Positions 3,461 through 24,012 of a stretch of DNA of 64,000 nt are shown piece by piece. Each line of letters starts with the position of its first letter. Position 1 is the stretch's first letter. The notes below the pieces were generated by a model that had not been told where the DNA came from, made no database searches, and saw nothing but the letters and a program-made list of their open reading frames with translations. Both the position numbers and the translations under genes were made by a program. Source of the stretch: Candidatus Nomurabacteria bacterium (GTDB taxonomy: Bacteria > Patescibacteriota > Minisyncoccia > Phycocordibacterales > UBA9973); NCBI GenBank assembly GCA_026395995.1, contig JAPLXQ010000010.1:69296-133295 (forward strand), written 5' to 3'.

Positions 3461-3724
3461 ATGTACTATTTATATATTTTAAAATGTGCGGATCAGAGTT
3501 TGTATACTGGCATCACGACGGATTTGAAACGTCGGGTGGCGGAGCATAATGGTGAGAAGGGAAATAAACTCGGAGCGAAGTACACGAGTGCTCGTCGGCC
3601 GGTGGAAATGGTTTATTCTAATCGATTTAAAAATCGTTCTAATGCGAGCAAAGAAGAAGCGAGAATTAAAAGTCTGAGTAGGGAAAAGAAACTAGTTTTA
3701 ATAAATAAAAAGAAATCTGTGTAA
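3461..3724 (+). CDS. GIY-YIG nuclease-domain protein
   Basis: [29 protein letters not shown] is the canonical GIY-YIG motif. Confidence 0.7.
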
Positions 3725-3760
3725 GGGGAGTCCTTACACAGATTGTGTTAGAATTGGTGA

Positions 3761-4288
3761 ATGGATTTTAGTTATAATTTAAAAACGAATAGGCGGACGC
3801 GCGGAGTGCGGATCAGTGTCGGCGCTGGTGGAGAGGTGGTGGTGACTAGGTCACCGAGAATATCCATCGTACAAGTGGAAAGCCTTGTCACAAAAAGGGC
3901 GGAATGGATACGAGAGAAGATTGCAGAGATGGAAAAAAGGCCAAAGAAAATACTTGCTCATTTTAGTGTGAAGGAATACAAAGAGTTCAAGGAGCTCACA
4001 AGAGCTTTGGTAGAGGAAAGAATAAAAGTTTTAAATCAGAAATATAAATTTGAAGTAATGAGTATCAGCATTAGGAATCAAAAGACGAGGTGGGGAAGTT
4101 GTAGTGGAAAAAAGAATTTAAATTTTAAGTACAAACTTTTCTTTTTGCCACCCGAACTCTCGGATTATATTATCGTGCATGAATTATGTCATTTAAAAGA
4201 GATGAATCATTCGAAAAGGTTTTGGGATCTAGTCGCTTTGCAAGTGCCGAATCATAAAGAATGTCGAAAACAAATACAATTATATTAA
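3761..4288 (+). CDS. YgjP/DUF45-family metal-dependent hydrolase (HExxH)
   Basis: IIVHELCHLKEMNHSKRFWDLV near the C-terminus. Contains an in-frame 15-bp perfect palindrome GGTGACtaGGTCACC at 3840..3854. Confidence 0.65.
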   Translation: MDFSYNLKTNRRTRGVRISVGAGGEVVVTRSPRISIVQVESLVTKRAEWIREKIAEMEKRPKKILAHFSVKEYKEFKELTRALVEERIKVLNQKYKFEVMSISIRNQKTRWGSCSGKKNLNFKYKLFFLPPELSDYIIVHELCHLKEMNHSKRFWDLVALQVPNHKECRKQIQLY

Positions 4289-4305
4289 TAAAATAAAATA
4301 AAATT

Positions 4306-4785
4306 ATGAATACACATACACATCCGATAGTGGGGCATATACATCTAACAGTTTCTGACCTAGATCGAGCACTTTTGTTTTATCGAGACTTGCTCGGTTT
4401 CGAAGTTTCTGCGCGTTATGGAGACAGTGCAGTTTTTCTCTCTAGTGGTGGATATCATCACCATATTGGATTAAATACTTGGGCAGGCAAGGGTGCAAAG
4501 CCAGCACCTATGGGACACACTGGTATGTATCATGTCGCATTTTTATATCCGACGAGAAAAGCTCTCGCTATCGTTTTGAAAAAATTAATTGATGCAGAAT
4601 ATCCGCTCGAAGGCTCTGCTGATCATGGAGTTTCCGAGGCTGTGTATTTGAGGGACCCAGATAATAACGGAGTCGAGATTTATGTCGATCGTCCGAAAGA
4701 AACTTGGAAAGTTTCAAATGATGGGATGGTAGAAATGGTGACAGAAGTTTTAAACATAGAAGATGTGTTAAACGAGCTTGCATAG
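4306..4785 (+). CDS. VOC/glyoxalase-family protein
   Basis: N-terminal HIHLTVSDLDRALLFYRDLLGFEV and the second βαβββ module are typical of the glyoxalase/bleomycin-resistance/dioxygenase fold. Confidence 0.6.
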   Translation: MNTHTHPIVGHIHLTVSDLDRALLFYRDLLGFEVSARYGDSAVFLSSGGYHHHIGLNTWAGKGAKPAPMGHTGMYHVAFLYPTRKALAIVLKKLIDAEYPLEGSADHGVSEAVYLRDPDNNGVEIYVDRPKETWKVSNDGMVEMVTEVLNIEDVLNELA

Positions 4786-4872
4786 TTTTTTTGTGCTATA
4801 ATAAAAGTATTATTAATTTAATTTAAGAGATATTGTGCTTATTCGACACTGTGCAATATTTCTAAGAATCAA

Positions 4873-4938
4873 ATGTCAAAAGGAGATACGCATCAGCGTA
4901 AAGAAAAAAAGAAACCAAAGAAGGTCGTAGCAAAATAG
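4873..4938 (+). CDS. candidate tiny lysine-rich ORF (MSKGDTHQRKEKKKPKKVVAK) immediately upstream of a strong terminator
   Basis: Lies between a TGCTATAAT promoter at 4798..4806 and the terminator at 4951..4985. Could equally be a small RNA. Confidence 0.2.
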   Translation: MSKGDTHQRKEKKKPKKVVAK

Positions 4939-4950
4939 TTTTTTTGAAAA

Positions 4951-4985
4951 CAGTCCTAGTGAATAACTAGGACTGTTTTTATTTT
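4951..4985 (+). terminator. Rho-independent terminator
   Basis: ACAGTCCTAGTgaataaACTAGGACTGT followed by TTTTTATTTT. Confidence 0.6.
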
Positions 4986-5079
4986 GACGAATGAGGAGCA
5001 ATATAAAAATGTAGTTATTTTTATATTGTCCGAATGATGTCAAAAGAAGCTTAGCTTATTTTGTGAGTTTCTTTTTTTT

Positions 5080-5108
5080 TGACAAAAACTCTTTATTTTG
5101 CTATAGTA
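5080..5108 (+). promoter_or_regulatory. sigma70-like promoter
   Basis: TTGACA, 17-bp spacer, extended -10 TGcTATAGT. Confidence 0.5.
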
Positions 5109-5147
5109 TTTTCAGAAATAATAAGTAAATTAAAAAAAGAAAAAGAA

Positions 5148-5891
5148 ATGGGAAATTCTAAAGTATCAGCAATGAATAGAAAATTTGAAAGATTTTTAAT
5201 GGGACCTCGGGAATCTGAATATCCAAAAGCAAACCCTGAAGAATTATTGGCTCTAAAACAATTTAATTGTTTTCAAAAAATTATTTCAAAATTGTCATAT
5301 AATGGTTTTGAATATGTTGATGAAAAAATAATCAGAAAAAACCATGAAAGATTTGGTTATGTACCACCACCAGTAGCAAGAATAAAAGAAACATTAAAAC
5401 AGGTTTCTTTTCAAAAATGGTATGCTGGAGATATTTGTCTGACTATACATACTTCATTTGATGCAGAAAAAGGGTTGTATGGTGAATTTACAAAAAAGGG
5501 AACTGCTTGGGTTGTAGTTTCAGATGGAGTTACTAATGGAATTTATTTCCAACAAGTTAAACGTCATGTTCTTTTAGAAAATTTTGCAGATCGACTAATT
5601 AAAGCTGCTTTATTTATGGAAAACAGAATCAATGGACGTCCTACTGTTCCGGGTACAAATCAATTGTTTGAAATAAAACAAACGAATTCTGAGACATATT
5701 ATGTTTCTCCGTTAGATAAAAAAGATAAACGTTATTTTTTAAATGGAGAAATTCCAAAAGAATTGAGAAGTTATGCTACAACTCTGTTCAACAGGATTAA
5801 GTACTACCAGAAAAACAGGAAGAAAAATGGTATTAAAAAACGCCAAAGAAAAATTCGTAAAACGTGGACAATAAAACATCCACAAAAGTAA
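5148..5891 (+). CDS. hypothetical protein (basic C-terminus)
   Basis: The ORF-track start at 5079 overlaps the predicted promoter, so the start was moved to the first ATG downstream (MGNSKV). Confidence 0.4.
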   Translation: MGNSKVSAMNRKFERFLMGPRESEYPKANPEELLALKQFNCFQKIISKLSYNGFEYVDEKIIRKNHERFGYVPPPVARIKETLKQVSFQKWYAGDICLTIHTSFDAEKGLYGEFTKKGTAWVVVSDGVTNGIYFQQVKRHVLLENFADRLIKAALFMENRINGRPTVPGTNQLFEIKQTNSETYYVSPLDKKDKRYFLNGEIPKELRSYATTLFNRIKYYQKNRKKNGIKKRQRKIRKTWTIKHPQK

Positions 5892-5895
5892 GTAT

Positions 5896-5923
5896 ACGCA
5901 TGGGAAACTATGCGTTTTTTTAT
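5896..5923 (+). terminator. Rho-independent terminator
   Basis: ACGCATgggaaactATGCGT plus TTTTTTTATT. Confidence 0.55.
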
Positions 5924-6024
5924 TGGTTGTTTTTATCTTTTAGATATAGTATTGTAAAGAAAAATAACTAATACCTTAACAAATGAAAAGTGTGAAAAAT
6001 ACGACATTAAAAACAATGAATCAG

Positions 6025-12321: not shown

Positions 12322-12352
12322 ACGGATACGAGTAATCGTATCCGTTTTTTTT
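12322..12352. terminator. bidirectional Rho-independent terminator between the converging 11466 gene and recG
   Basis: ACGGATACGagtaatCGTATCCGT flanked by T and A runs. Confidence 0.6.
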
Positions 12353-14570
12353 ATTCAAAATGCAATTCTAAATGCTTTTTGGAAAGCATAGTTTTTAGTA
12401 GAGGGTGGTGTATGAGGTCTGGGTCGGTGGCGATAATGTTTGTCGCTTCGAGGCGGGCGGCTTCAACCATTTTTATATTTTTTATGGCTTCCATTCCGAG
12501 GTCAGTGATGCCCCATTGTTTCGCGCCGCCTAGTTCACCTGCACCGCGAAGTGTGAGGTCGAGTTCGGAAAGTTCAAAACCATTTTTAGCAGTTTTGAGA
12601 GCATTCAATCTGTGCATAGTTTTTTCAGATTTTGCTTCTGCGAAAACATAGCAAAAAGCTTGGTGATTACTACGGATCACGCGTCCACGGAGCTGGTGTA
12701 GTTGTGCGAGCCCAAATCTCTCTGCACCTTCGATGATTATTATCGTCGCATTCGGAACATTCACGCCCACTTCGATTACAGATGTTGCAACGAGAATATC
12801 AATAGCACCCAAAGTAAAACGCTCCATCACTTCTTCTTTTTTTTCTTTACTCATCTTGCTATGAAGTACTCCGATTTCACAATCTGTAAATATTTCTTTT
12901 TTAAGTCTTTTTGCTTCAGCTACTGCAGACTTCATTGTGAGAGCTAGTTCCTTTTCCGGATCTGGTTCGTCGATACGAGGGCAGATGACATAGAGCTGTC
13001 TACCTTTGGCCATTTCTTCTTTTATTTTTTTATAAGTATCTTCTCTTTTGTCTGGAGTAATTATTTCTGTAATCACTGGTTTTCTACCTGCTGGCATTTC
13101 GTTGAGCAAACTTAAATCAAGGTCACCATAAATAGTGAGCGCAAGAGTGCGGGGAATCGGTGTCGCTGTCATTGAAAGTAGATGAGGGGCGAAGCCGTCT
13201 TTGCGAACAAGATTTCTTCTTTGGTTTGTACCGAAACGATGTTGTTCATCGATTATTGTGAGTGCGAGGTTTTTAAATTTCACCGATTTTGAAATGAGTG
13301 CGTGGGTGCCGATAAGTATTGGAATTTCACCATTAGCAGTCCATTTCAAAAGTTGAGCTCTGGAAATATTTGTCCAGCCGTCAGGACTAACCTTTGAAGG
13401 AAACTTCCGACAGGTCTTGCCTGTCAGCAAGGCGACGTTGATCGGTAAATGTTTAAAATATTTTATAAACGATTCAAAATGTTGAGTTGCTAAAATTTCC
13501 GTCGGTGCCATATATGCGACTTGGAGATTTCCGAATGTTTGAGGCTTGCCCTGAGCGGAGTCGAAGGGTCTTTGAGTAACTGTCGCATAAGTCACAGTCG
13601 CTGCGACGGCAGTTTTACCAGAGCCTACGTCGCCTTCGAGAAGGCGAGACATTGGGTGGTCCGCTTTAATATCAGTGAGAATTGTATTAATAGCATCGAC
13701 TTGTCCTTGAGTCGCTTGAAAAGGAAAACGTTCCAAGAATTCTTGCACCTTAGCTTCATCTGGATTAACGCAAAATGATTTATTATTTTTATATTCTCTG
13801 CGGTCTTGTTGTCTTTGTAATTGGATGAAAAAAACTTCTTCAAAAGCAAAACGCTTTCTAGCTGAAAGGGAATCGTGTTCATTTTGCGGTGTATGAATCC
13901 AAATGAGTGCAGTCTTCAAACTCGGTAAATGATATTTATCTAAAATGTCTTTTGGTATGTAATCGAAAAAACTATCCAATACACCACTGTTAAATATTTT
14001 TTGTATTGTATGATAAATCCACTTTGAAGTAATACCTCTAGTTTCTCTGTATACAGGATATGAAAGTCCTACTCCCTCTCCTTTATAAGGAGAGGGTCGG
14101 GGTGAGGTGGATTTTTCAGGGGGTGAATTCTTAAATAAACTCTCATGTTTATCTATAGGAAGGCTTCCAATTTTTTCAAATTCTGGATTAGTAAGATATA
14201 AACCGCTTTTACTTTCGGTAACTTTCCCTGTGAGTTTGATGTTTTCTCCTTCATGAATCATTTTTGCAAGGTAAGCTTGGTGAAACCAAATTATTTTTAT
14301 TCTTCCTGAGAGGTCTTCGATGTAAGCTTCGCCCATAGGAATCTTTGAACGGAAACCTTTTTTTGTTTTTAAATTTGTTACTTTTCCATACACTGTGGCT
14401 GTTTCACCAGCTACTAACTCATCAATTTGTTTTATTTGAGAAATATCTGAGTAACGAACAGGGAAGTAGAATAGTAGGTCGGCAACAGAAAAAAGCCCGA
14501 GCTTGTGAAGGGCTTTTTTCTGATTGATGTCGAGGCGTGAAATGTCCTCAAGTTTGTCACCTATATTCAT
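12351..14570 (-). CDS. recG: ATP-dependent DNA helicase RecG, with an in-frame GC-rich palindromic insert near its N-terminus
   Basis: DVGSGKTAVAA Walker A and DEQHRFG DEAH box, plus the N-terminal wedge-domain region. 739 aa. Confidence 0.8.
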   Translation of the reverse strand: MNIGDKLEDISRLDINQKKALHKLGLFSVADLLFYFPVRYSDISQIKQIDELVAGETATVYGKVTNLKTKKGFRSKIPMGEAYIEDLSGRIKIIWFHQAYLAKMIHEGENIKLTGKVTESKSGLYLTNPEFEKIGSLPIDKHESLFKNSPPEKSTSPRPSPYKGEGVGLSYPVYRETRGITSKWIYHTIQKIFNSGVLDSFFDYIPKDILDKYHLPSLKTALIWIHTPQNEHDSLSARKRFAFEEVFFIQLQRQQDRREYKNNKSFCVNPDEAKVQEFLERFPFQATQGQVDAINTILTDIKADHPMSRLLEGDVGSGKTAVAATVTYATVTQRPFDSAQGKPQTFGNLQVAYMAPTEILATQHFESFIKYFKHLPINVALLTGKTCRKFPSKVSPDGWTNISRAQLLKWTANGEIPILIGTHALISKSVKFKNLALTIIDEQHRFGTNQRRNLVRKDGFAPHLLSMTATPIPRTLALTIYGDLDLSLLNEMPAGRKPVITEIITPDKREDTYKKIKEEMAKGRQLYVICPRIDEPDPEKELALTMKSAVAEAKRLKKEIFTDCEIGVLHSKMSKEKKEEVMERFTLGAIDILVATSVIEVGVNVPNATIIIIEGAERFGLAQLHQLRGRVIRSNHQAFCYVFAEAKSEKTMHRLNALKTAKNGFELSELDLTLRGAGELGGAKQWGITDLGMEAIKNIKMVEAARLEATNIIATDPDLIHHPLLKTMLSKKHLELHFE
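14071..14125. repeat. GC-rich palindromic element inside recG (CCCTCTCCtttataaGGAGAGGG followed by TCGGGGTGAGGTGG)
   Basis: Perfect 8+8 palindrome plus conserved tail. Encodes SPRPSPYKGEGVG in frame. Related copies at 39371..39418 and 33567..33600. Confidence 0.6.
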
Positions 14571-15746: not shown

Positions 15747-15811
15747 ATAAATATTTTAGCACAAGATTTGTCTATTAGATATTCTTTAAGAGAAGTATTA
15801 TAATATAGCCT

Positions 15812-16786
15812 ATGAATAAAAAAGTCTTTATAACAAGGAAAATTCCAGACCTCGGAATTACAATGTTAAAAAATAAGGGTTATGAGGTAGATGTTTATCC
15901 AAAGAATAAAATAATGTCTCAGAAGGAGCTGGTATCTGTTCTTAAAAAGAAAGATTATGATGCTGTTTTGTGTTTATTGACCGATAAAATAGATGCTAAG
16001 ATTTATAGTGCTGCACCAAACACAAAGTTGTACGTGAACTATGCGACCGGCTTTGATAATTTAGATTTGGCTGAAGCTAAAAAACGTGGAATTTTGATTG
16101 CCAATGCTCCTGCCGATTTAGCCTCAGAAGCTGTCGCCGAGCATGCTCTCGTAATGATGCTAGCTCTTGCAGCGAGAATTGTCGAAGCCGATGATTTTGT
16201 TCGTCGTGGAAAGTATAAAGGTTGGGATCCGATGCATTTTATCGGTACAGATATTTTAGGGAAAACTCTCGGTCTTGTCGGTGCTGGTAGAATAGGGGAA
16301 CGAGTAGCTTTTTATGCAAAAGGGTTAGGAATGAAAATAATCTATACTGATGTCACAAAAAATTCTAGGATTGAAGAATCGGTCGGTGCAGAATACGTTT
16401 CTTCTATTGAAGAACTTTTACCAAAAGCTGATCTTGTGAGTTTGCATGTTCCACTACTTGATTCGACAAAGCACCTGATGAATGAAAAACATTTTAAGAT
16501 GATGAAATCGACTGCTTTTTTAGTAAATACTTCTCGTGGCCCTGTCGTTGATGAAAAAGCTCTCGTAAAAGCTTTGAAAGAAAAAGTTATTGCTGGAGCC
16601 GGTCTTGATGTTTTTGAGTTTGAACCAAAATTGGTTTCTGGTTTAGCAAAACTTAATAATGTTATTTTGACACCACACATAGGTTCAGCCAGTGTCGAAG
16701 CACGCAATCAAATGGCTGAGGTCGCAGTAAATAATATAATAGATTTTTTTGAAGGAAAACTTCCAAAGAATATTGTAAATAAATAA
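15812..16786 (+). CDS. D-isomer-specific 2-hydroxyacid dehydrogenase (D-lactate / glycerate / hydroxypyruvate reductase-like)
   Basis: [16 protein letters not shown]-binding motif and the catalytic region LHVPL ... [10 protein letters not shown] ... HIGSAS. Confidence 0.7.
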
Positions 16787-16790
16787 AAAT

Positions 16791-18218
16791 ATGAATGGAA
16801 AATTAATTATCGCAAGGCATGAAGAATCAGAATGGAATAAACTCGGCAAATGGACTGGTTCTGTGAATATTGGTTTAACTGGTGAAGGCTTTAATCAGTC
16901 CAGAAAAATGGGTGAACTCATTCGTGGTATTCCTATGGATCAAGCTTTTGCTTCAGCGCAAATCAGATCACTTGAAACACTTCTTTGTATGGAGGACGAC
17001 ATTTGTATTGATTTACCGATTACTCGATCCGATGCTTTAAATGAAAGAGATTATGGTGATTATACTGGAAAAAATAAATGGGAAATGAAAGATATTCTAG
17101 GCGAAGAAGAGTTTGATAAGCTTCGTCGTGATTGGGATTATTCTGTGCCAAATGGTGAGACTTTGAAAATGGTTTATGAAAGAATTGTGCCATACTACCT
17201 AAACACTATTTTGCCAATCTTAAAAGAAGGGAAGACCGTGCTTCTCGTCGCTCACGGAAATTCTTTGCGAGCCTTGATGAAATATTTAGAAAATATTTCT
17301 GATGAAAACATCTCTCATTTAGAAATGCTTTTTGATACTGTAGTAATTTATGAAATAAATGAAGAAGGAAAAATGGTTAGTAAGGAAGAGAGACATTTGC
17401 CAGCCATAAAAAATGATACAAAAAAGGTTGCACAAATTGTCGCAACGATTGGAATAAATTCTGGAAATAGAGAAACTCTTTTAGAATTGTTTAAAAATGG
17501 TATGAATATTGCTCGTTTGAATTTTTCTTGGTCTAGCCTAGATTGGCATGCAGAAAAAATAGCTTTAATTAAAGCTTCAGCCAAAGAGGCTGGAAAAAAT
17601 ATTTTGATTATTCAGGATTTACCAGGACCTAGAATTCAAGAAGAACATGGGCATACATATGACAAGACTACGACTTTCGATATGACAGAGCAAGATAAAA
17701 ATTTTGTGAAATTTGGTGTCGAGCAAGAGGTAGACTACACAGCACTTTCATTTGTCGGTAGTAAAAAAGAAATATTAGAATGTCGTGAACTTATAAAAAG
17801 TCTTGGTGGTACACAAAAAATAATTGCGAAAGTAGAGAGAAAAATCGCCGTCGATAACCTCGAAGAAATTATTTCTTCGGCTGATGCAGTGATGGTAGCC
17901 AGGGGAGATCTGGGCGATGAATTTCCACTTGAACAAGTTCCATTTATACAAGATAAAATTATTAAAGCTTGTAATAAGGCTGGTAAGCCCGTAATCACTG
18001 CTACACAAATGATGCTGTCGATGACAAATAGTCCGACGCCGACACGTGCTGAAGTAACAGATGTTTACTCTGCAATCTCACAAGGTAGCGATGCAGTAAT
18101 GCTTTCAGAAGAAACAGCCACAGGTAAATATCCAGTCGAAGCTGTGACTATGATGGAGAAAATTATTCTAGAAGCCGAAAGCCATATGACTAGTGATAAA
18201 AAATTAAATCTTTTGTAA
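16791..18218 (+). CDS. fusion of 2,3-BPG-dependent phosphoglycerate mutase (N-terminal) with a minimal pyruvate kinase A-domain (C-terminal)
   Basis: N-terminus: [15 protein letters not shown] and [13 protein letters not shown] (dPGM). C-terminus: [10 protein letters not shown] ... [10 protein letters not shown] ... IIAKVE ... [12 protein letters not shown] ... [20 protein letters not shown] ... [32 protein letters not shown] (pyruvate kinase), but with no B-domain lid and no C-terminal regulatory domain. Confidence 0.75.
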
Positions 18219-18220
18219 AA

Positions 18221-18253
18221 CTGCAGGGCGGAGGGGAACCCTCCGCCCTGCAG
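18221..18253. repeat. 15-bp perfect GC-rich inverted repeat CTGCAGGGCGGAGGG/CCCTCCGCCCTGCAG with 3-nt loop, no U-tract
   Basis: Lies directly after the pgm-pyk stop and before the TA pair. Highly atypical composition for this genome. Confidence 0.6.
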
Positions 18254-18298
18254 TTATCCACTTGACTTCTATATACACTCTATATATACTGTGTGTAT

Positions 18299-18571
18299 AT
18301 GTCAGAAACAGTAATAAATTTTAAAACAAGTGCAAAGCTTAAAGCACAAGCGAAAGAGGTCCTCGATGAAATGGGACTCAATTTTTCTATTGCTTTAAAT
18401 GATTATTTAAAAAAAATAATTCTCGAAAAGAGAATTGAATTCACTGTGCCTGAAATCCCAAATGCTCGTTTACGAAAAGCTATCAAAGAATCTAGGGAAG
18501 ATTATAAAAATGGAAAATCTTTTGGACCATTTAAGAATCATGAAGATTTTGAAAAATCATTAATGTCCTAA
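18299..18571 (+). CDS. dinJ: type II antitoxin, DinJ/RelB family
   Basis: MSETVINFKTSAKLKAQAKEVLDEMGLNFSIALNDYLKKII ribbon-helix-helix pattern. Immediately upstream of the toxin. Confidence 0.6.
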   Translation: MSETVINFKTSAKLKAQAKEVLDEMGLNFSIALNDYLKKIILEKRIEFTVPEIPNARLRKAIKESREDYKNGKSFGPFKNHEDFEKSLMS

Positions 18572-18575
18572 ATTT

Positions 18576-18839
18576 ATGCTTAATGCTATTTTCTCTAAAA
18601 ACTTTAAAAAATCTTTCAAAAAGAAAGATAAAATTATTCAAGAAAAAGTAAAAATACGCATTAGACTCTTTAGAGAAGATCCAAATAATTTAATTTTAAA
18701 TAATCATAAACTTTCAGGTGAGTATGAGGGTTGTAGTAGTATAAATATAACTGGTGATTATAGAGTAGTTTTTGAATTTCTTGATAAAAATACTGTGAAC
18801 TTAGTAGATATCGGAACTCATTCAGAATTGTATGAGTAA
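18576..18839 (+). CDS. yafQ: type II toxin, YafQ/RelE family
   Basis: NHKLSGEYEGCSSINITGDYRVVFEF ... VDIGTHSELY matches the YafQ/RelE mRNA-interferase core. Confidence 0.6.
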   Translation: MLNAIFSKNFKKSFKKKDKIIQEKVKIRIRLFREDPNNLILNNHKLSGEYEGCSSINITGDYRVVFEFLDKNTVNLVDIGTHSELYE

Positions 18840-18868
18840 TGATAAAAATTAAATCTTTTGTAAAAATT

Positions 18869-20122
18869 ATGACAAAAATAAAAAAAGTTACGGGGAGGGA
18901 AATAATAGATTCACGGGGGAATCCGACTGTCGAAGTCGAGTGTGAACTTGAGAGTGGGGCAGTGGCTGTGGCGGGTGTGCCGTCTGGGGCGAGTACAGGA
19001 ATACATGAAGCTTTGGAATTGCGAGATGCAGATAAGGCTAGGTACAACGGCCTCGGAGTTTTGAATGCAGTAAATAATGTAAACACAATAATCAATGAAA
19101 ATATTTCTGGAAAAGAATTTGATCAGAAATCTTTAGATGAGGCATTGATAAATTTAGATGGAACAAAAAATAAATCCAAACTCGGAGCGAATGCAATACT
19201 CGGTGTGTCGCTCGCTTTTGCTCGTGCAGTCGCAAATGAAAAGAAAATAAATTTATATGAATATTTAGGGAGCTTAGTAGGGAATACAGAATATGCTTTA
19301 CCCGAGCCGATGTTTAATGTTATCAATGGTGGTAAACATGCCGACAGTGGACTCGACATTCAAGAATTTATGATTATCCCTGTCGGTATAAAAACTTTTA
19401 AAGAAAAAGTCCGTGTAGTTTCAGAAGTGATTTCAGCTTTGAAAAAAGTTTTAGTGGAAAAAGGATTTGGTGTCGGAGTAGGGGATGAAGGTGGCTTTGC
19501 ACCAAAACTCGCTTCCAATGAAGAAGCTTTTGATATTTTAATTATGGCGATACAAAATGCTGGTTATACTACAGAGCAAATAAAGATCGGTATTGATGCT
19601 GCAGCATCTAGCTTCTTCTTCGAGGGAATGTATAAATTAAAAATAGCAGGGGAGGAGAAAAGTTTTAATACCGATGAAATGATAGCTTGGTATGAAAAGC
19701 TCGTATCTACATACCCGATAATTTCTATCGAAGATGGACTCGACGAAGAAGACTGGGCGGGATTTGTATCATTAAATAAAAAACTCGGAGACAAGATAAA
19801 AATAATAGGGGATGACCTTCTTGTGACGAATATAGAAAAAATCCAAAAAGCTATTTCAGAAAATGCTGTGAATTCTGTTTTGATAAAATTGAATCAAATC
19901 GGAACTTTGTCTGAGACAATCGACGCAATACAAATGACTAAAAAACAAAATTGGAACGCTATCGTTTCGCACCGTTCAGGGGAGACAAATGATACATTTA
20001 TCGCCGACCTTGCCGTAGGACTATCATGTGGTTACATAAAATCTGGCTCACTAACCCGCGAAGAAAGAGTCTGTAAATATAATCGTTTGATGGAGATAGA
20101 AGAGAATTTACTATCTAAATAA
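18869..20122 (+). CDS. eno: enolase
   Basis: MTKIKKVTGREIIDSRGNPTVEVE N-terminus and SHRSGETNDTFIADLAVG active-site motif. Confidence 0.9.
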   Translation: MTKIKKVTGREIIDSRGNPTVEVECELESGAVAVAGVPSGASTGIHEALELRDADKARYNGLGVLNAVNNVNTIINENISGKEFDQKSLDEALINLDGTKNKSKLGANAILGVSLAFARAVANEKKINLYEYLGSLVGNTEYALPEPMFNVINGGKHADSGLDIQEFMIIPVGIKTFKEKVRVVSEVISALKKVLVEKGFGVGVGDEGGFAPKLASNEEAFDILIMAIQNAGYTTEQIKIGIDAAASSFFFEGMYKLKIAGEEKSFNTDEMIAWYEKLVSTYPIISIEDGLDEEDWAGFVSLNKKLGDKIKIIGDDLLVTNIEKIQKAISENAVNSVLIKLNQIGTLSETIDAIQMTKKQNWNAIVSHRSGETNDTFIADLAVGLSCGYIKSGSLTREERVCKYNRLMEIEENLLSK

Positions 20123-20128
20123 AAATTG

Positions 20129-20215
20129 CGGAGGATGTGAGATTCGAACTCACGGACCCTTTTACAGGTCGGCGGTTTAGTAAACCGCTAGTTTAAACCA
20201 CTCACTCAATCCTCC
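20129..20215 (-). tRNA. type II (long variable arm) Ser-like tRNA with anticodon loop UUACUAA (anticodon ACU, i.e. A34)
   Basis: Acceptor GGAGGAT/ATCCTCC, D-loop with GG, anticodon stem GCGGU/ACCGC, long variable arm, T-arm GTGAG-TTCGAAT-CTCAC, discriminator G. Same architecture as the tRNA-Ser(GCU) copies but G34 to A. Confidence 0.55.
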
Positions 20216-20265: not shown

Positions 20266-21303
20266 ATGGTAGAGACGTTAATATTAAATAGGATAAAATT
20301 TAATAAAAAAGGAATTCAAAAAAAGCTTATTTTGCAAGCTAAAAAGTCTTTAAATTTAACATGGTCTGAATTTGCTAAAGAATTAGGTGTAAGTACTAGA
20401 ACACTTACAAATTGGAGTTGTGAAAAGTTAAATATGTCTTTTGTCTCTGCTGAAAGAATTTCAAAATTAACAGATCTTAAAATTCCTAAAGGCTATTTAG
20501 TTATAAAATGGGATGATCATTTAAGAAAGATTAGTGCATCTGGTGGAAAGAGTAGTTTCAAAAAACATGGAAGAGTTGGTGGTGATGAAATATATAGAAA
20601 AAATAAATGGAAAGAATGGTGGACTAAAAATGGAAAGTATCAAAAAGCTCCTAGTGGTTATAATTCATTGTTAAATATAAAAAAACCAAAACATAATAAA
20701 TTGCTTGCTGAATATGTCGGTATTATGCTAGGTGATGGTGGAATAGCAAAATATTCTACGACAATTACTCTTTCAAATGAAGAAATAAATTATGTTAATT
20801 ATATATCAAGTTTGATAAATAAATTATTCGGTTTGACCCCAAAAGTTTATAAAAAGAAAAACGCTAATGCTGTCGATATAGTAGTTCAAAGAAAAGCTTT
20901 GGTAGATTTTTGCCAAAGTATTGGACTTGTTCAGGGAAATAAAGTTAAACATCAAGTAGATATTCCAAGCTGGGTCAAAGAGAATAAAAGTTTTTCGATA
21001 GAATGTGTTAGGGGATTAATAGATACTGATGGGTGCTTTTACACTAATTCGTATTATGTGAATGGTAAAAAATATTTTTATTTTAAAATTGCTTTTAAAA
21101 ACAGTTCTTTGCCGTTAATTAAATCAGTGGCAGAGATTTTAGCTAGTTTAGGAGTAAAAGTGAGAATAAGTAGAAATTTAAAAGACGTGCGAATTGAAGA
21201 AAAAGAATCAGTTTTAAAATATATAAAGGAAATAGGGACATATAATGATAAACATTTACAAAAAATAATAAAATGGAAAAATAGCAAAAATATGTTAGAG
21301 TAG
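20266..21303 (+). CDS. free-standing LAGLIDADG-family homing-endonuclease-like protein with an N-terminal HTH domain
   Basis: Two LAGLIDADG-type motifs (VGIMLGDGG and RGLIDTDGCF) and an N-terminal HTH (SEFAKELGVSTRTLTNW). Sits between two tRNA genes. Confidence 0.6.
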   Translation: MVETLILNRIKFNKKGIQKKLILQAKKSLNLTWSEFAKELGVSTRTLTNWSCEKLNMSFVSAERISKLTDLKIPKGYLVIKWDDHLRKISASGGKSSFKKHGRVGGDEIYRKNKWKEWWTKNGKYQKAPSGYNSLLNIKKPKHNKLLAEYVGIMLGDGGIAKYSTTITLSNEEINYVNYISSLINKLFGLTPKVYKKKNANAVDIVVQRKALVDFCQSIGLVQGNKVKHQVDIPSWVKENKSFSIECVRGLIDTDGCFYTNSYYVNGKKYFYFKIAFKNSSLPLIKSVAEILASLGVKVRISRNLKDVRIEEKESVLKYIKEIGTYNDKHLQKIIKWKNSKNMLE

Positions 21304-21313
21304 TTGGGTCAAA

Positions 21314-21402
21314 GGAACCGTGTCTGAGCGGTCTAAGGTACCTCTTTGCTAAAGAGGCAGGGGCTTTAAAACCCCTCGCGAGTTCGAATCTCGCCGGTTC
21401 CG
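21314..21402 (+). tRNA. tRNA-Ser(GCU), copy 1
   Basis: Acceptor GGAACCG/CGGTTCC, anticodon arm CCTCT-TTGCTAA-AGAGG, long variable arm, T-loop TTCGAAT, discriminator G. Confidence 0.75.
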
Positions 21403-21423
21403 CAACAAATCTAAACCCAAATC

Positions 21424-21629: not shown

Positions 21630-21851
21630 ATGGGTAAATCAATTAGAACAAAAGAATACGGAGTATTCGTCAAAAGTCTTCGCCAAGCTCGTGAAGAAAT
21701 GGGATTAACACAGGTTGAGGTCGCAAAGAAACTTAAAAGACCACAATCGTACATTTCTAAATGTGAAGCTGGCGAACAAAGGATTGATGTGGTTGAATTA
21801 AATAAGTTTGCGAAACTTTATAAAAAAAACATTGGATACTTTATAAGTTAA
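21630..21851 (+). CDS. XRE-family HTH regulator
   Basis: LTQVEVAKKLKRPQSYISKCEAGEQRIDVVELNKFAKLY matches the Cro/C1-type HTH. Confidence 0.65.
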   Translation: MGKSIRTKEYGVFVKSLRQAREEMGLTQVEVAKKLKRPQSYISKCEAGEQRIDVVELNKFAKLYKKNIGYFIS

Positions 21852-23885: not shown

Positions 23886-23974
23886 TGGAACCGTGTCTGA
23901 GCGGTCTAACGTACCTCTTTGCTAAAGAGGCAGGGGCTTTAAAACCCCTCGCGAGTTCGAATCTCGCCGGTTCC
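23886..23974 (+). tRNA. tRNA-Ser(GCU), copy 2 (2 mismatches to copy 1)
   Basis: 89 nt, same cloverleaf as 21314..21402. Differs only at taaggt/taacgt in the D-region. Confidence 0.75.
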
Positions 23975-24012
23975 GCTTGTAATAATTTTATACATTTAAC
24001 GGCAATAATAAT

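Follow-up and report, generated by a model that had tools for sequence, protein, structure and literature searches.

Layout of the locus

We examined positions 15812-20122 of a 64,000-nucleotide stretch of DNA (the window) from Candidatus Nomurabacteria bacterium (assembly GCA_026395995.1, contig JAPLXQ010000010.1, positions 69,296 to 133,295), where five co-directional open reading frames (ORFs) lie on the plus strand. The second of these is a single ORF predicted to join two enzymes of lower glycolysis, a 2,3-bisphosphoglycerate (2,3-BPG)-dependent phosphoglycerate mutase (dPGM) and a pyruvate kinase (PK) pared down to its catalytic barrel. A 2-hydroxyacid dehydrogenase gene precedes it, separated by 4 nt, and a toxin-antitoxin (TA) pair and the enolase gene eno follow. 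This order had been proposed in a first-pass annotation made from the letters alone, and we recovered every ORF at the coordinates collected in Table 1. Because the genes upstream of 15812 are on the minus strand, the plus-strand transcription unit plausibly starts at the promoter-like site immediately ahead of the dehydrogenase gene.

A protein identical to the fusion is present in NCBI under the name 'MAG: pyruvate kinase [Candidatus Nomurabacteria bacterium]', MAG standing for metagenome-assembled genome, which places the source among the Parcubacteria. A tblastn search of the 64-kb window found no glycerate kinase and no second copy of PK, dPGM or eno.

Table 1. Coordinates of the features of the locus, in window numbering, with the evidence for each
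Feature	Position	Strand	Basis
Promoter-like site TAGATA-17-TATAAT, 10/12	15776..15804	+	consensus match only
2-Hydroxyacid dehydrogenase, 324 aa	15812..16786	+	ORF and Pfam/NCBIfam/PDB matches
Fusion ORF, dPGM and PK barrel, 475 aa	16791..18218	+	uninterrupted frame, Pfam and NCBIfam
Predicted short-form 2,3-BPG-dependent phosphoglycerate mutase, aa 1-205	16791..17405	+	Pfam, NCBIfam, PDB alignment
Predicted minimal pyruvate kinase, A-domain (beta/alpha)8 barrel only, aa 211-475	17421..18218	+	Pfam, NCBIfam, Foldseek
Lid-replacement segment, aa 281-297, beta-hairpin	17631..17681	+	AlphaFold2 (AF2), alignment lengths
Left 36-nt repeat copy, true fusion 3' end and stop	18185..18220	+	repeat alignment
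GC-rich perfect hairpin, 17-bp stem, 3-nt loop	18219..18255		left edge of inserted block
TA promoter-like site TTGACT-17-TATACT, 10/12	18262..18290	+	promoter scan
AT-rich palindrome overlapping the TA promoter-like site	18270..18299	+	inverted repeats I3, I14
RelB/DinJ-family antitoxin, 92 aa from GTG	18293..18571	+	PF04221, TIGR02384
RelE/StbE-family (YafQ-like) mRNA-interferase toxin, 87 aa	18576..18839	+	PF15738, TIGR02385
Right 36-nt repeat copy, decayed remnant of fusion 3' end	18831..18866	+	repeat alignment
Enolase, 417 aa	18869..20122	+	TIGR01060; probable start ATG 18869, longest ORF from 18839

The mutase half of the fusion

Residues 5-195 of the fusion match the Pfam family His_Phos_1 (PF00300; E 1.9e-30), and the NCBIfam dPGM model TIGR01258 scores 146.7 bits against a cut-off of 81.7, with the phosphatase models cobC, PspA and GpmB scoring far lower. 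Phosphoglycerate or bisphosphoglycerate mutases account for 29 of 29 PDB matches of this half, the best solved relative being the dPGM of S. pombe (1fzt, 211 aa), with aa 5-199 aligned on residues 10-207 (E 5.8e-39). The earlier description of the N-terminal ~200 residues as a dPGM is thus borne out by both the model score and the full alignment.

The active-site motifs RHEESEWN (aa 9-16) and AHGNSLRAL (aa 154-162) are present. An alignment of 101 homologues shows no substitution at R9, H10, N16, R59, E85, K96, R113, G156 or N157, and conservation of at least 90% at H155; R59, E85, K96 and R112/R113 are the counterparts of E. coli R62, E89, K100 and R116/R117. Like the S. pombe enzyme, with which it has the motifs RH(G/x)ESxWN and HGNSLRAL in common, the mutase half is without the ~25-residue loop and the C-terminal tail of long dPGMs. 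Unlike that enzyme, it is joined to a PK barrel, which follows it in some lineages and precedes it in others, and the Gly of RHG is variable within the fusion family (Glu in the window protein). We predict that this half interconverts 3-phosphoglycerate (3-PG) and 2-phosphoglycerate (2-PG) in a 2,3-BPG-dependent manner.

The kinase half: a barrel with neither lid nor C-terminal domain

The remainder of the fusion matches the Pfam PK barrel family (PF00224) at E 3.3e-75, with 253.6 bits against a cut-off of 30, and passes the NCBIfam equivalog model for pyruvate kinase, TIGR01064, narrowly (311.4 versus 306.4 bits); all PRK pyruvate-kinase subfamily models stay under their cut-offs. The top 50 PDB matches in a Foldseek search are all pyruvate kinases, at root-mean-square deviations (rmsd) of 1.0-2.5 A, among them P. 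aeruginosa PykA (6qxl_J; 259 columns, rmsd 1.5 A, 42% identity). A closer relationship to another phosphoenolpyruvate (PEP)-utilizing barrel, such as PEP mutase or pyruvate phosphate dikinase (PPDK), had been named as the finding that would overturn the PK assignment. We made this comparison and reject PEP mutase, PPDK and HpcH, as Pfam, NCBIfam and Foldseek give PK alone; PF03328 appears only faintly, on a few relatives.

The part that is missing can be placed precisely. The PF00224 match is split into two stretches, the second aligning aa 298-452 with profile positions 174-328, and profile positions ~80-173 are unmatched. Against G. stearothermophilus PK, query residues 211-284 align ungapped with 2-75 and residues 292-465 with 165-339, so that ~90 residues of the B domain (76-164), the lid, face ~7 query residues. 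In all, a lid of ~80-100 residues is replaced by a hairpin of ~17 residues, with strands placed by AF2 at 281-284 and 287-290. The C-terminal allosteric and tetramerization domain of canonical PKs is also gone: Pfam finds no PK_C (PF02887) match in the fusion, and in the AF2 model, which was built on the 101 homologues and has a mean predicted local distance difference test score (pLDDT) of 91.6, the chain ends 11 residues past the last barrel helix. These alignments and segment lengths confirm the first-pass view of the C-terminal half as a PK A domain without lid or C domain.

What is left of the kinase retains its catalytic residues. An ungapped 172-residue match to rabbit M1 PK (1a49; query 297-468 on chain 219-390) places K347, E349, D373, T405 and S439 on rabbit K269, E271, D295, T327 and S361, which we take to be, respectively, the catalytic acid/base Lys (K269), Mg2+ ligands (E271, D295) and phosphate/PEP ligands (T327, S361). 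On the other side of the deletion, ARLNFSW is the counterpart of ARLNFSHG (R72, N74, S76, H77) and DLPGPRIQ that of DTKGPEIR (D112-R119), the second alteration having been noticed already at first reading along with the other motifs quoted there, all of which are present; R242, N244, S246 and D276 occupy the positions of R72, N74, S76 and D112. The fusion is therefore identical to PykA and other canonical PKs at R72, N74, D112, K269, E271, D295, T327 and S361 (rabbit numbering). In alignments of 27 and 101 homologues, all of these catalytic positions except S246 were scored as invariant; R242, N244, D276, K347, E349, R371, G372, D373, T405, S439 and E441 are invariant in the 101. Measured against relatives that are 84% and 96% identical in nucleotide sequence over the gene, the ratio of nonsynonymous to synonymous substitution rates (dN/dS) is 0.065-0.122 for the kinase half and 0.055-0.068 for the mutase half. 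Both halves are thus under strong purifying selection (dN/dS 0.055-0.122).

The deletion is a property of the family. In a motif search that covers 114 of the 120 top homologues, R72 and K269 are separated by 101-107 residues, versus 197 in rabbit PK, and the stretch between D112 and the post-lid helix measures 31-35 residues in these reduced enzymes (mini-PKs; 33 in the fusion) versus 113 in the nearest canonical PKs. The lid segment of mini-PKs reads DL(P/S)GPR(I/V)Q-x(3-5)-GH(T/S)(Y/F)(D/N), where the nearest canonical PKs have DL(S/P)GPK(I/L)R. Within it, H288 is invariant and R281 and Y290 are at least 90% conserved.

The segment also points to an origin. In the ATP complex of rabbit M1 PK, the lid closes over the active site, and Arg119 and Lys206 contact the nucleotide phosphates. 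The fusion differs from canonical PKs in having Gln for Arg119, no Lys206, Arg for Lys117 and Trp for His77, as well as in being joined to another enzyme; L277 and R281 stand at rabbit positions 113 and 117. Position 117 distinguishes two groups of PKs, Glu marking K+-dependent enzymes and Lys together with Leu113 marking K+-independent ones (PMC8835810, PMC4284704). With Leu113 and a basic residue at 117, mini-PKs resemble the K+-independent branch (PMC8835810), which includes P. aeruginosa PykA, the enzyme whose A-domain barrel superposes on that of the fusion. Judging from these residues, mini-PKs appear to descend from the K+-independent Lys117/Leu113 branch, Lys117 having given way to Arg and Arg119 to Gln, and an invariant His having been gained.

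Distribution and gene order across the Candidate Phyla Radiation

The fusion belongs to a large family in the Candidate Phyla Radiation (CPR). All of the 120 best database matches carry both PF00224 and PF00300 (470-533 aa, 50-87% identity). The family comprises at least 120 protein clusters, a lower bound because our counts come from these best 120 matches. The clusters are drawn from NCBI, JGI, ENA and Logan, their sources are MAGs of Nomurabacteria, Zambryskibacteria, Paceibacterota, Minisyncoccia and the 'Parcubacteria group', and their automatic names vary among pyruvate kinase, dPGM or phosphoglycerate mutase, histidine phosphatase and hypothetical protein. Two domain orders occur among the best 120: 99 are dPGM-PK, as in the window, and 19 are PK-dPGM, the latter with identical lid and C-domain deletions. 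In a neighbor-joining tree of PK cores, computed without support values, mini-PKs form one clade apart from canonical PKs, and the PK-dPGM forms fall at three or more positions among the dPGM-PK forms. As far as this crude tree can be relied upon, its topology suggests repeated fusion or permutation of mutase and mini-PK.

Gene order follows domain order. The window and loci L002-L004 read dehydrogenase, dPGM-PK, eno; L083 and L084 read eno, PK-dPGM, dehydrogenase; and L085 and L086 read eno, PK-dPGM. Dehydrogenase and fusion genes occur together in L001-L004, L083/L084 and L087-L089. Because gene order mirrors domain order, it is always the kinase half that lies toward enolase and the mutase half that lies toward the dehydrogenase. 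We are therefore dealing with a large conserved family in two domain orders, not with a peculiarity of the window locus. A contig scan with the homologue alignment was swamped by generic PK motifs, and its informative results are limited to L003-L007.

Mini-PKs also occur without the mutase. A search with the barrel alone, covering 1.84 billion cluster representatives and followed by Pfam scans, found standalone mini-PKs of ~265 residues (251-269; for example P0121, P0122 and P0126) in at least 120 clusters, many of them named Kaiserbacteria. Other partners are enolase (P0123, 679 aa, a singleton) and glycerate kinase (DUF4147 plus MOFRL) placed ahead of the mini-PK (P0129, 690 aa; P0321, 703 aa, the last on 13 contigs), and one 1092-residue protein, a singleton that needs confirmation, combines glycerate kinase, enolase and mini-PK (P0203). 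The singleton multidomain architectures (P0123, P0129, P0203) could be frameshift artifacts. At locus L006, the dehydrogenase, glycerate kinase, enolase and mini-PK are encoded by successive genes with 4-nt overlaps, the glycerate kinase and enolase genes being separate there (3501-5992).

Two related architectures came to light in the same searches. Glycerate kinase-enolase fusions of ~825 residues (P0276-P0320, 45 clusters), named 'phosphopyruvate hydratase' in JGI and 'DUF4147 domain-containing protein' in NCBI, are common in Kaiserbacteria-like CPR. A Dehalococcoidales MAG (L007, 142-1284) encodes a 380-residue PK that is without the lid (LDLPGYKRRSGGIVEVF) and keeps its C domain, and P0260 and P0266 (385 aa) resemble it in both respects. 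L007 groups with canonical PKs in the same neighbor-joining tree, and its lid loss looks independent of the mini-PK clade and outside the CPR.

The flanking enzymes

The dehydrogenase contains the Pfam domain 2-Hacid_dh_C (E 6.5e-60) and aligns over its full length with the archaeal glyoxylate reductases 5aov, 2dbq and 6bii in PDB (E 3e-90 to 2.5e-86); phosphoglycerate, glycerate and hydroxypyruvate enzymes are next best. It passes no NCBIfam equivalog cut-off, the best match being the glyoxylate reductase model PRK13243 (372 bits over residues 1-324, under its 455-bit cut-off). The first-pass annotation had allowed for a D-lactate dehydrogenase. This suggestion is not supported, as D-lactate dehydrogenases in PDB match far more weakly (E 2e-46 and 9e-39) and the corresponding models PRK08605 (131.9 bits, cut-off 356) and PRK12480 (116.1, cut-off 579) are missed by a wide distance. 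In sequence, the enzyme seems to be a relative of glyoxylate/hydroxypyruvate reductases and not of D-lactate dehydrogenases. Of the route from 3-PG to lactate that had been envisaged for this one locus, the predicted enzymes from 3-PG to pyruvate are encoded and the lactate step is unsupported. The conserved linkage of the dehydrogenase gene to the locus nonetheless suggests that its product is a redox partner of the pathway.

The enolase scores 581.3 bits with TIGR01060 against a cut-off of 300. Its translation probably starts at the ATG in Table 1 (MTKIKKVTGREI...), a position homologous to the start of other enolases.

A toxin-antitoxin cassette at the fusion-enolase junction

The two small ORFs between the fusion gene and eno encode a TA pair. 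As in type II modules of the RelBE and DinJ-YafQ kind, the antitoxin gene is the first of the two, and 4 nt separate it from the toxin gene. The antitoxin scores 39.4 bits with PF04221 (cut-off 22.4) and 47.3 with TIGR02384 (cut-off 45.65); its start is probably ATG 18299, giving 90 residues, instead of the upstream GTG. The toxin scores 39.8 bits with PF15738 (cut-off 30) and 42.5 with the RelE_StbE model TIGR02385 (cut-off 27.9), and falls short of the YafQ-specific model TIGR00053 (36.7 versus 87.25). Of the DinJ-YafQ pair named at first reading, then, a RelB/DinJ antitoxin with a RelE-type toxin stands, both above family cut-offs, and the specific assignment to YafQ does not. Further points of resemblance to known modules are the sizes of the products (92 and 87 aa), a promoter/operator region that is both AT-rich and palindromic, and the motif GTHSxLY at the C terminus. 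The AT-rich palindrome that overlaps the TA promoter-like site may be the TA operator. Where the pair departs from these modules is in the toxin, which is best filed under RelE/StbE and whose stop codon lies within duplicated target sequence.

This duplication reveals how the pair probably arrived. The hairpin and the TA genes lie between two direct copies of a 36-nt repeat, which start 646 bp apart, match at 33 of 36 positions with a single 1-nt gap and score 55, where 500 shuffles reach at most 32. The left copy encodes ...DKKLNLL* at the end of the fusion gene; the right copy has a TAA 5 nt ahead of the enolase ATG and contains the final codons and stop of the toxin gene. In the orthologous loci L002-L004, the fusion stop lies 1-5 nt from the enolase ATG with no TA pair between. 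The right copy therefore marks the ancestral fusion-eno junction. Because what is duplicated is the 3' end of this lineage's own fusion gene, the 646-bp TA block appears to have been inserted at a pre-existing fusion-eno junction, duplicating 36 nt of its target. An insertion into the operon had been suspected from the gene order, and the flanking repeat and the uninterrupted orthologous loci now support it. It offers a clean, small case of a cassette landing in a metabolic operon with target duplication.

The left edge of the inserted block is formed by a GC-rich hairpin. A 15-bp perfect palindrome had been described here, and its arms (18221-18235 and 18239-18253) are indeed perfect, with two matching arms in 0 of 100 shuffles; the stem extends to 17 bp and the fold is stable at -36.8 kcal/mol (z = -8.3). 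With no T-run after it on the plus strand (there is a TTTT on the minus strand), the hairpin was not picked up by the terminator scan. Expression of eno may by now rely on the TA promoter. The hairpin is single-copy in the window, and a search of metagenome contigs for the exact 33 nt returned no match, giving no sign of a recurrent or mobile element.

Proposed function and its alternatives

We propose that the locus encodes a bifunctional lower-glycolysis enzyme, consisting of a dPGM and a minimal ADP-dependent PK, together with enolase, and that the TA pair was inserted later, a reading to which we assign a probability of roughly 70%. The mutase half would convert 3-PG to 2-PG and back through a phospho-His10 intermediate, and the barrel would convert PEP and ADP to pyruvate and ATP. 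Enolase, which catalyzes the step between the two fused activities, would be supplied by the gene beside the PK half, and the gene beside the mutase half would add an NAD(P)H-dependent 2-oxoacid reductase. PK activity is most likely retained because every A-domain residue for PEP/pyruvate, Mg2+ and phosphate is kept, and PEP is the probable substrate because the barrel is constantly linked to PEP-producing enolase. That the kinase uses ADP we likewise infer as most likely.

Several structural consequences would follow. A single deletion of the B lid, at the root of a mini-PK clade confined to the CPR, may account for its absence. Arg281, at position 117, could supply the charge that normally comes from K+ or Lys117 and so render the enzyme K+-independent, and the hairpin with His288 and Tyr290 could in part replace Arg119 and Lys206 of the lid at the nucleotide phosphates. 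Having no C domain, the protein would escape control by the usual sugar-phosphate and AMP effectors and would probably be constitutive. Since the N and C termini of a (beta/alpha)8 barrel both emerge from the face that points away from the active site, the mutase would in either domain order be tethered at a distance from it, at the noncatalytic face that the N- and C-domains occupy in canonical PKs. The fusion more likely serves co-expression, stoichiometry and assembly than channeling between consecutive steps or provision of a new lid.

A number of observations weigh against our proposal. Loss of Arg119 and Lys206 could abolish or alter phosphoryl transfer to ADP, and our literature search found no characterized lid-less pyruvate kinase. 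Near the nucleotide site of canonical PKs, His77 is Trp throughout the family (W247), and Pro52 of TIGPAS is Ile in the window protein and its nearest relative, P0003 (TIGINSG, aa 220-223). The arrangement of the two domains in the AF2 model is of low confidence (predicted template modeling score [pTM] 0.59; pLDDT below 50 in the linker, residues 205-210), and the hairpin is modeled with only moderate confidence (pLDDT ~59-70). The dehydrogenase could act on pyruvate, hydroxypyruvate, glyoxylate or 3-PG. Lastly, the closest relatives, at 97% DNA identity, have tatC/tatA downstream of the fusion gene, and the empty insertion site is found only in more distant relatives.

Some of these observations could also mean that the barrel is no longer an efficient kinase and acts instead as a PEP- or pyruvate-binding regulator or scaffold, or has a side activity such as PEP hydrolysis or oxaloacetate decarboxylation. 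The absence of both the B lid and the C domain, the changes at His77 and Arg119 and the want of an experimental precedent in the literature would all be accounted for. However, the invariance of K347, E349, D373 and all other catalytic residues over hundreds of lineages, at a dN/dS of ~0.1, would be unexpected of a scaffold, the barrel is consistently adjacent to enolase, and the TIGR01064 equivalog cut-off is passed. Moreover, because PK has been found in only ~1/3 of CPR genomes, with no obvious substitute (Jaffe et al. 2020; PMC7304191), the fusion gene is plausibly the PK of this lineage. We therefore regard loss of kinase activity as unlikely.

A different objection concerns the history of the TA pair, which might be ancestral at the junction and lost elsewhere, or might have come with an imported block comprising everything past 18222, eno included. 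The closest relatives, L087-L089 (97% DNA identity over window positions 15929-18222) and L001 (86%), lose similarity to the window at 18222, 4 nt past the fusion stop and at the start of the hairpin, and continue with convergent tatC/tatA instead of eno, so that an empty site is not available at close range. Position 18222 is thus a strain-level breakpoint or rearrangement hot spot, and downstream of it lie hallmarks of mobile elements, namely a LAGLIDADG ORF and duplicated tRNA-Ser genes. Against an ancestral TA pair stand the duplicated fusion 3' end on either side of the cassette, its right copy 5 nt before the enolase ATG, the uninterrupted junction of L002-L004 and a GC content of 0.25 within the cassette versus 0.33-0.41 in the flanking genes. 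As for an imported eno, the window enolase shares, over residues 1-417, 61-65% identity with those encoded directly 3' of the fusion in L002-L004, in line with its neighbors, whose identities to their L002-L004 counterparts are 55-68%, and for this reason it looks vertically inherited. On balance, a TA pair older than the junction, or an imported eno, seems to us rather improbable, and later insertion of the cassette is the reading that we retain. L087-L089 also carry, 3' of the breakpoint, a phage-tail-like ORF and a 770-aa ORF, both of which, like tatC/tatA, are missing from the 64-kb window.

A more radical possibility is that the barrel works as a PEP-dependent phosphotransferase whose acceptor is His10 of the mutase, the phosphate being handed over either in trans or, across an oligomer, in cis, so that the mutase would be primed without 2,3-BPG and pyruvate would be released without ATP, the open site accommodating a protein substrate. 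PEP-dependent phosphorylation of His11 in mammalian PGAM1 was reportedly described by Vander Heiden and colleagues in Science in 2010 and is disputed; if true here, the charging of His10 would be a hard-wired natural version of it, and lower glycolysis in the CPR would run on covalent mini-enzyme modules (mutase, glycerate kinase, enolase, mini-PK) with non-textbook chemistry. The idea gains some appeal from the loss of lid and nucleotide contacts beside a full set of invariant PEP and Mg2+ residues, and from the repeated fusion of mutase and barrel, in both orders, despite the nonconsecutive steps. Yet lid-less barrels are abundant as standalone proteins of 265 residues or on glycerate kinase or enolase, with no adjacent mutase, which argues that the mini-PK functions independently of a fused mutase. 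On general structural grounds, short linkers at the barrel termini would hold the mutase at a distance from the PEP site; AF2 gives no confident interface (pTM 0.59); and fermentative CPR bacteria need the ATP of the PK step. We consider the charging of His10 very improbable, and continue to favor an ADP-dependent kinase.

Finally, although the source is a MAG and some relatives (P0123, P0129, P0203) are singletons, there is practically no chance that the fused ORF is an artifact of assembly chimerism, a frameshift or a miscalled stop: its frame is uninterrupted, three independent assemblies at 97% DNA identity carry the same 475-aa ORF, ~100 of the 120 best-match clusters share the dPGM-PK order at 50-87% identity, 101 homologues align, and dN/dS is low across the junction.

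Relation to known systems and significance

The component families (PK, dPGM, enolase, 2-hydroxyacid dehydrogenase and RelBE-type TA) are known and the sequences are already public under automatic names; what is new is recognition of the architecture. Our literature search found no description of a PK clade lacking lid and C domain, of its fusion to dPGM in either order or of the glycerate kinase and enolase fusions, and PMC7304191, PMC4508563 and PMC5220378 contain no description of the fusion or of a lid-less PK. Surveys of CPR metabolism report patchy detection of phosphoglycerate mutase, enolase and PK (PMC7304191, PMC4508563). Mini-PK fusions bear on that patchiness, and their inconsistent automatic names are a warning for annotation.

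There is a parallel in Thermotoga maritima, where a fusion of phosphoglycerate kinase and triosephosphate isomerase places two nonconsecutive glycolytic activities on one polypeptide in a small or streamlined genome. The dPGM-PK fusion differs from it in that one partner is truncated, both domain orders occur and fusions to glycerate kinase and enolase exist as well. The B lid of PK is thought to be needed for closing the active site and holding the nucleotide, and the C domain underlies all known allosteric control. If active, the mini-PK would be a minimal pyruvate kinase, a barrel of ~265 residues, and would indicate that a domain of 100 residues can be replaced by a short hairpin bearing Arg and His. 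More broadly, the reduced genomes of CPR/Patescibacteria encode the ATP-yielding end of glycolysis by truncated enzymes fused in several combinations.

Other features of the window

Downstream of the locus, 6 nt past the enolase stop, ARAGORN places a tRNA-Ser on the minus strand (20128-20215), its anticodon, ACT, being unusual, and the Rfam tRNA score there is under the gathering score; this may be a degenerate or atypical tRNA. A free-standing 345-aa ORF at 20266-21303, homing-endonuclease-like with an N-terminal helix-turn-helix (HTH) and two LAGLIDADG_3 repeats, lies in a low-GC stretch (0.27-0.29) between this call and a tRNA-Ser(GCT) gene at 21314-21403. A second plus-strand copy of the latter, one base different, is found at 23887-23976, 2.5 kb away, and between the two are an XRE-type HTH ORF (21630-21851) and three small ORFs that suggest no particular function. 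The layout resembles that left when an element integrates at a tRNA gene and duplicates its target.

Upstream of the locus, on the minus strand, a 739-aa ORF at 12351-14570, RecG-like by eye, contains short Pro/Gly/Ser-rich stretches (…STSPRPSPYKGEGVG…, …RPFDSAQGKPQTFGN…) that may be lineage-specific insertions. Within this ORF, positions 12400-12799 have a GC content of 0.47, versus ~0.35 around them.

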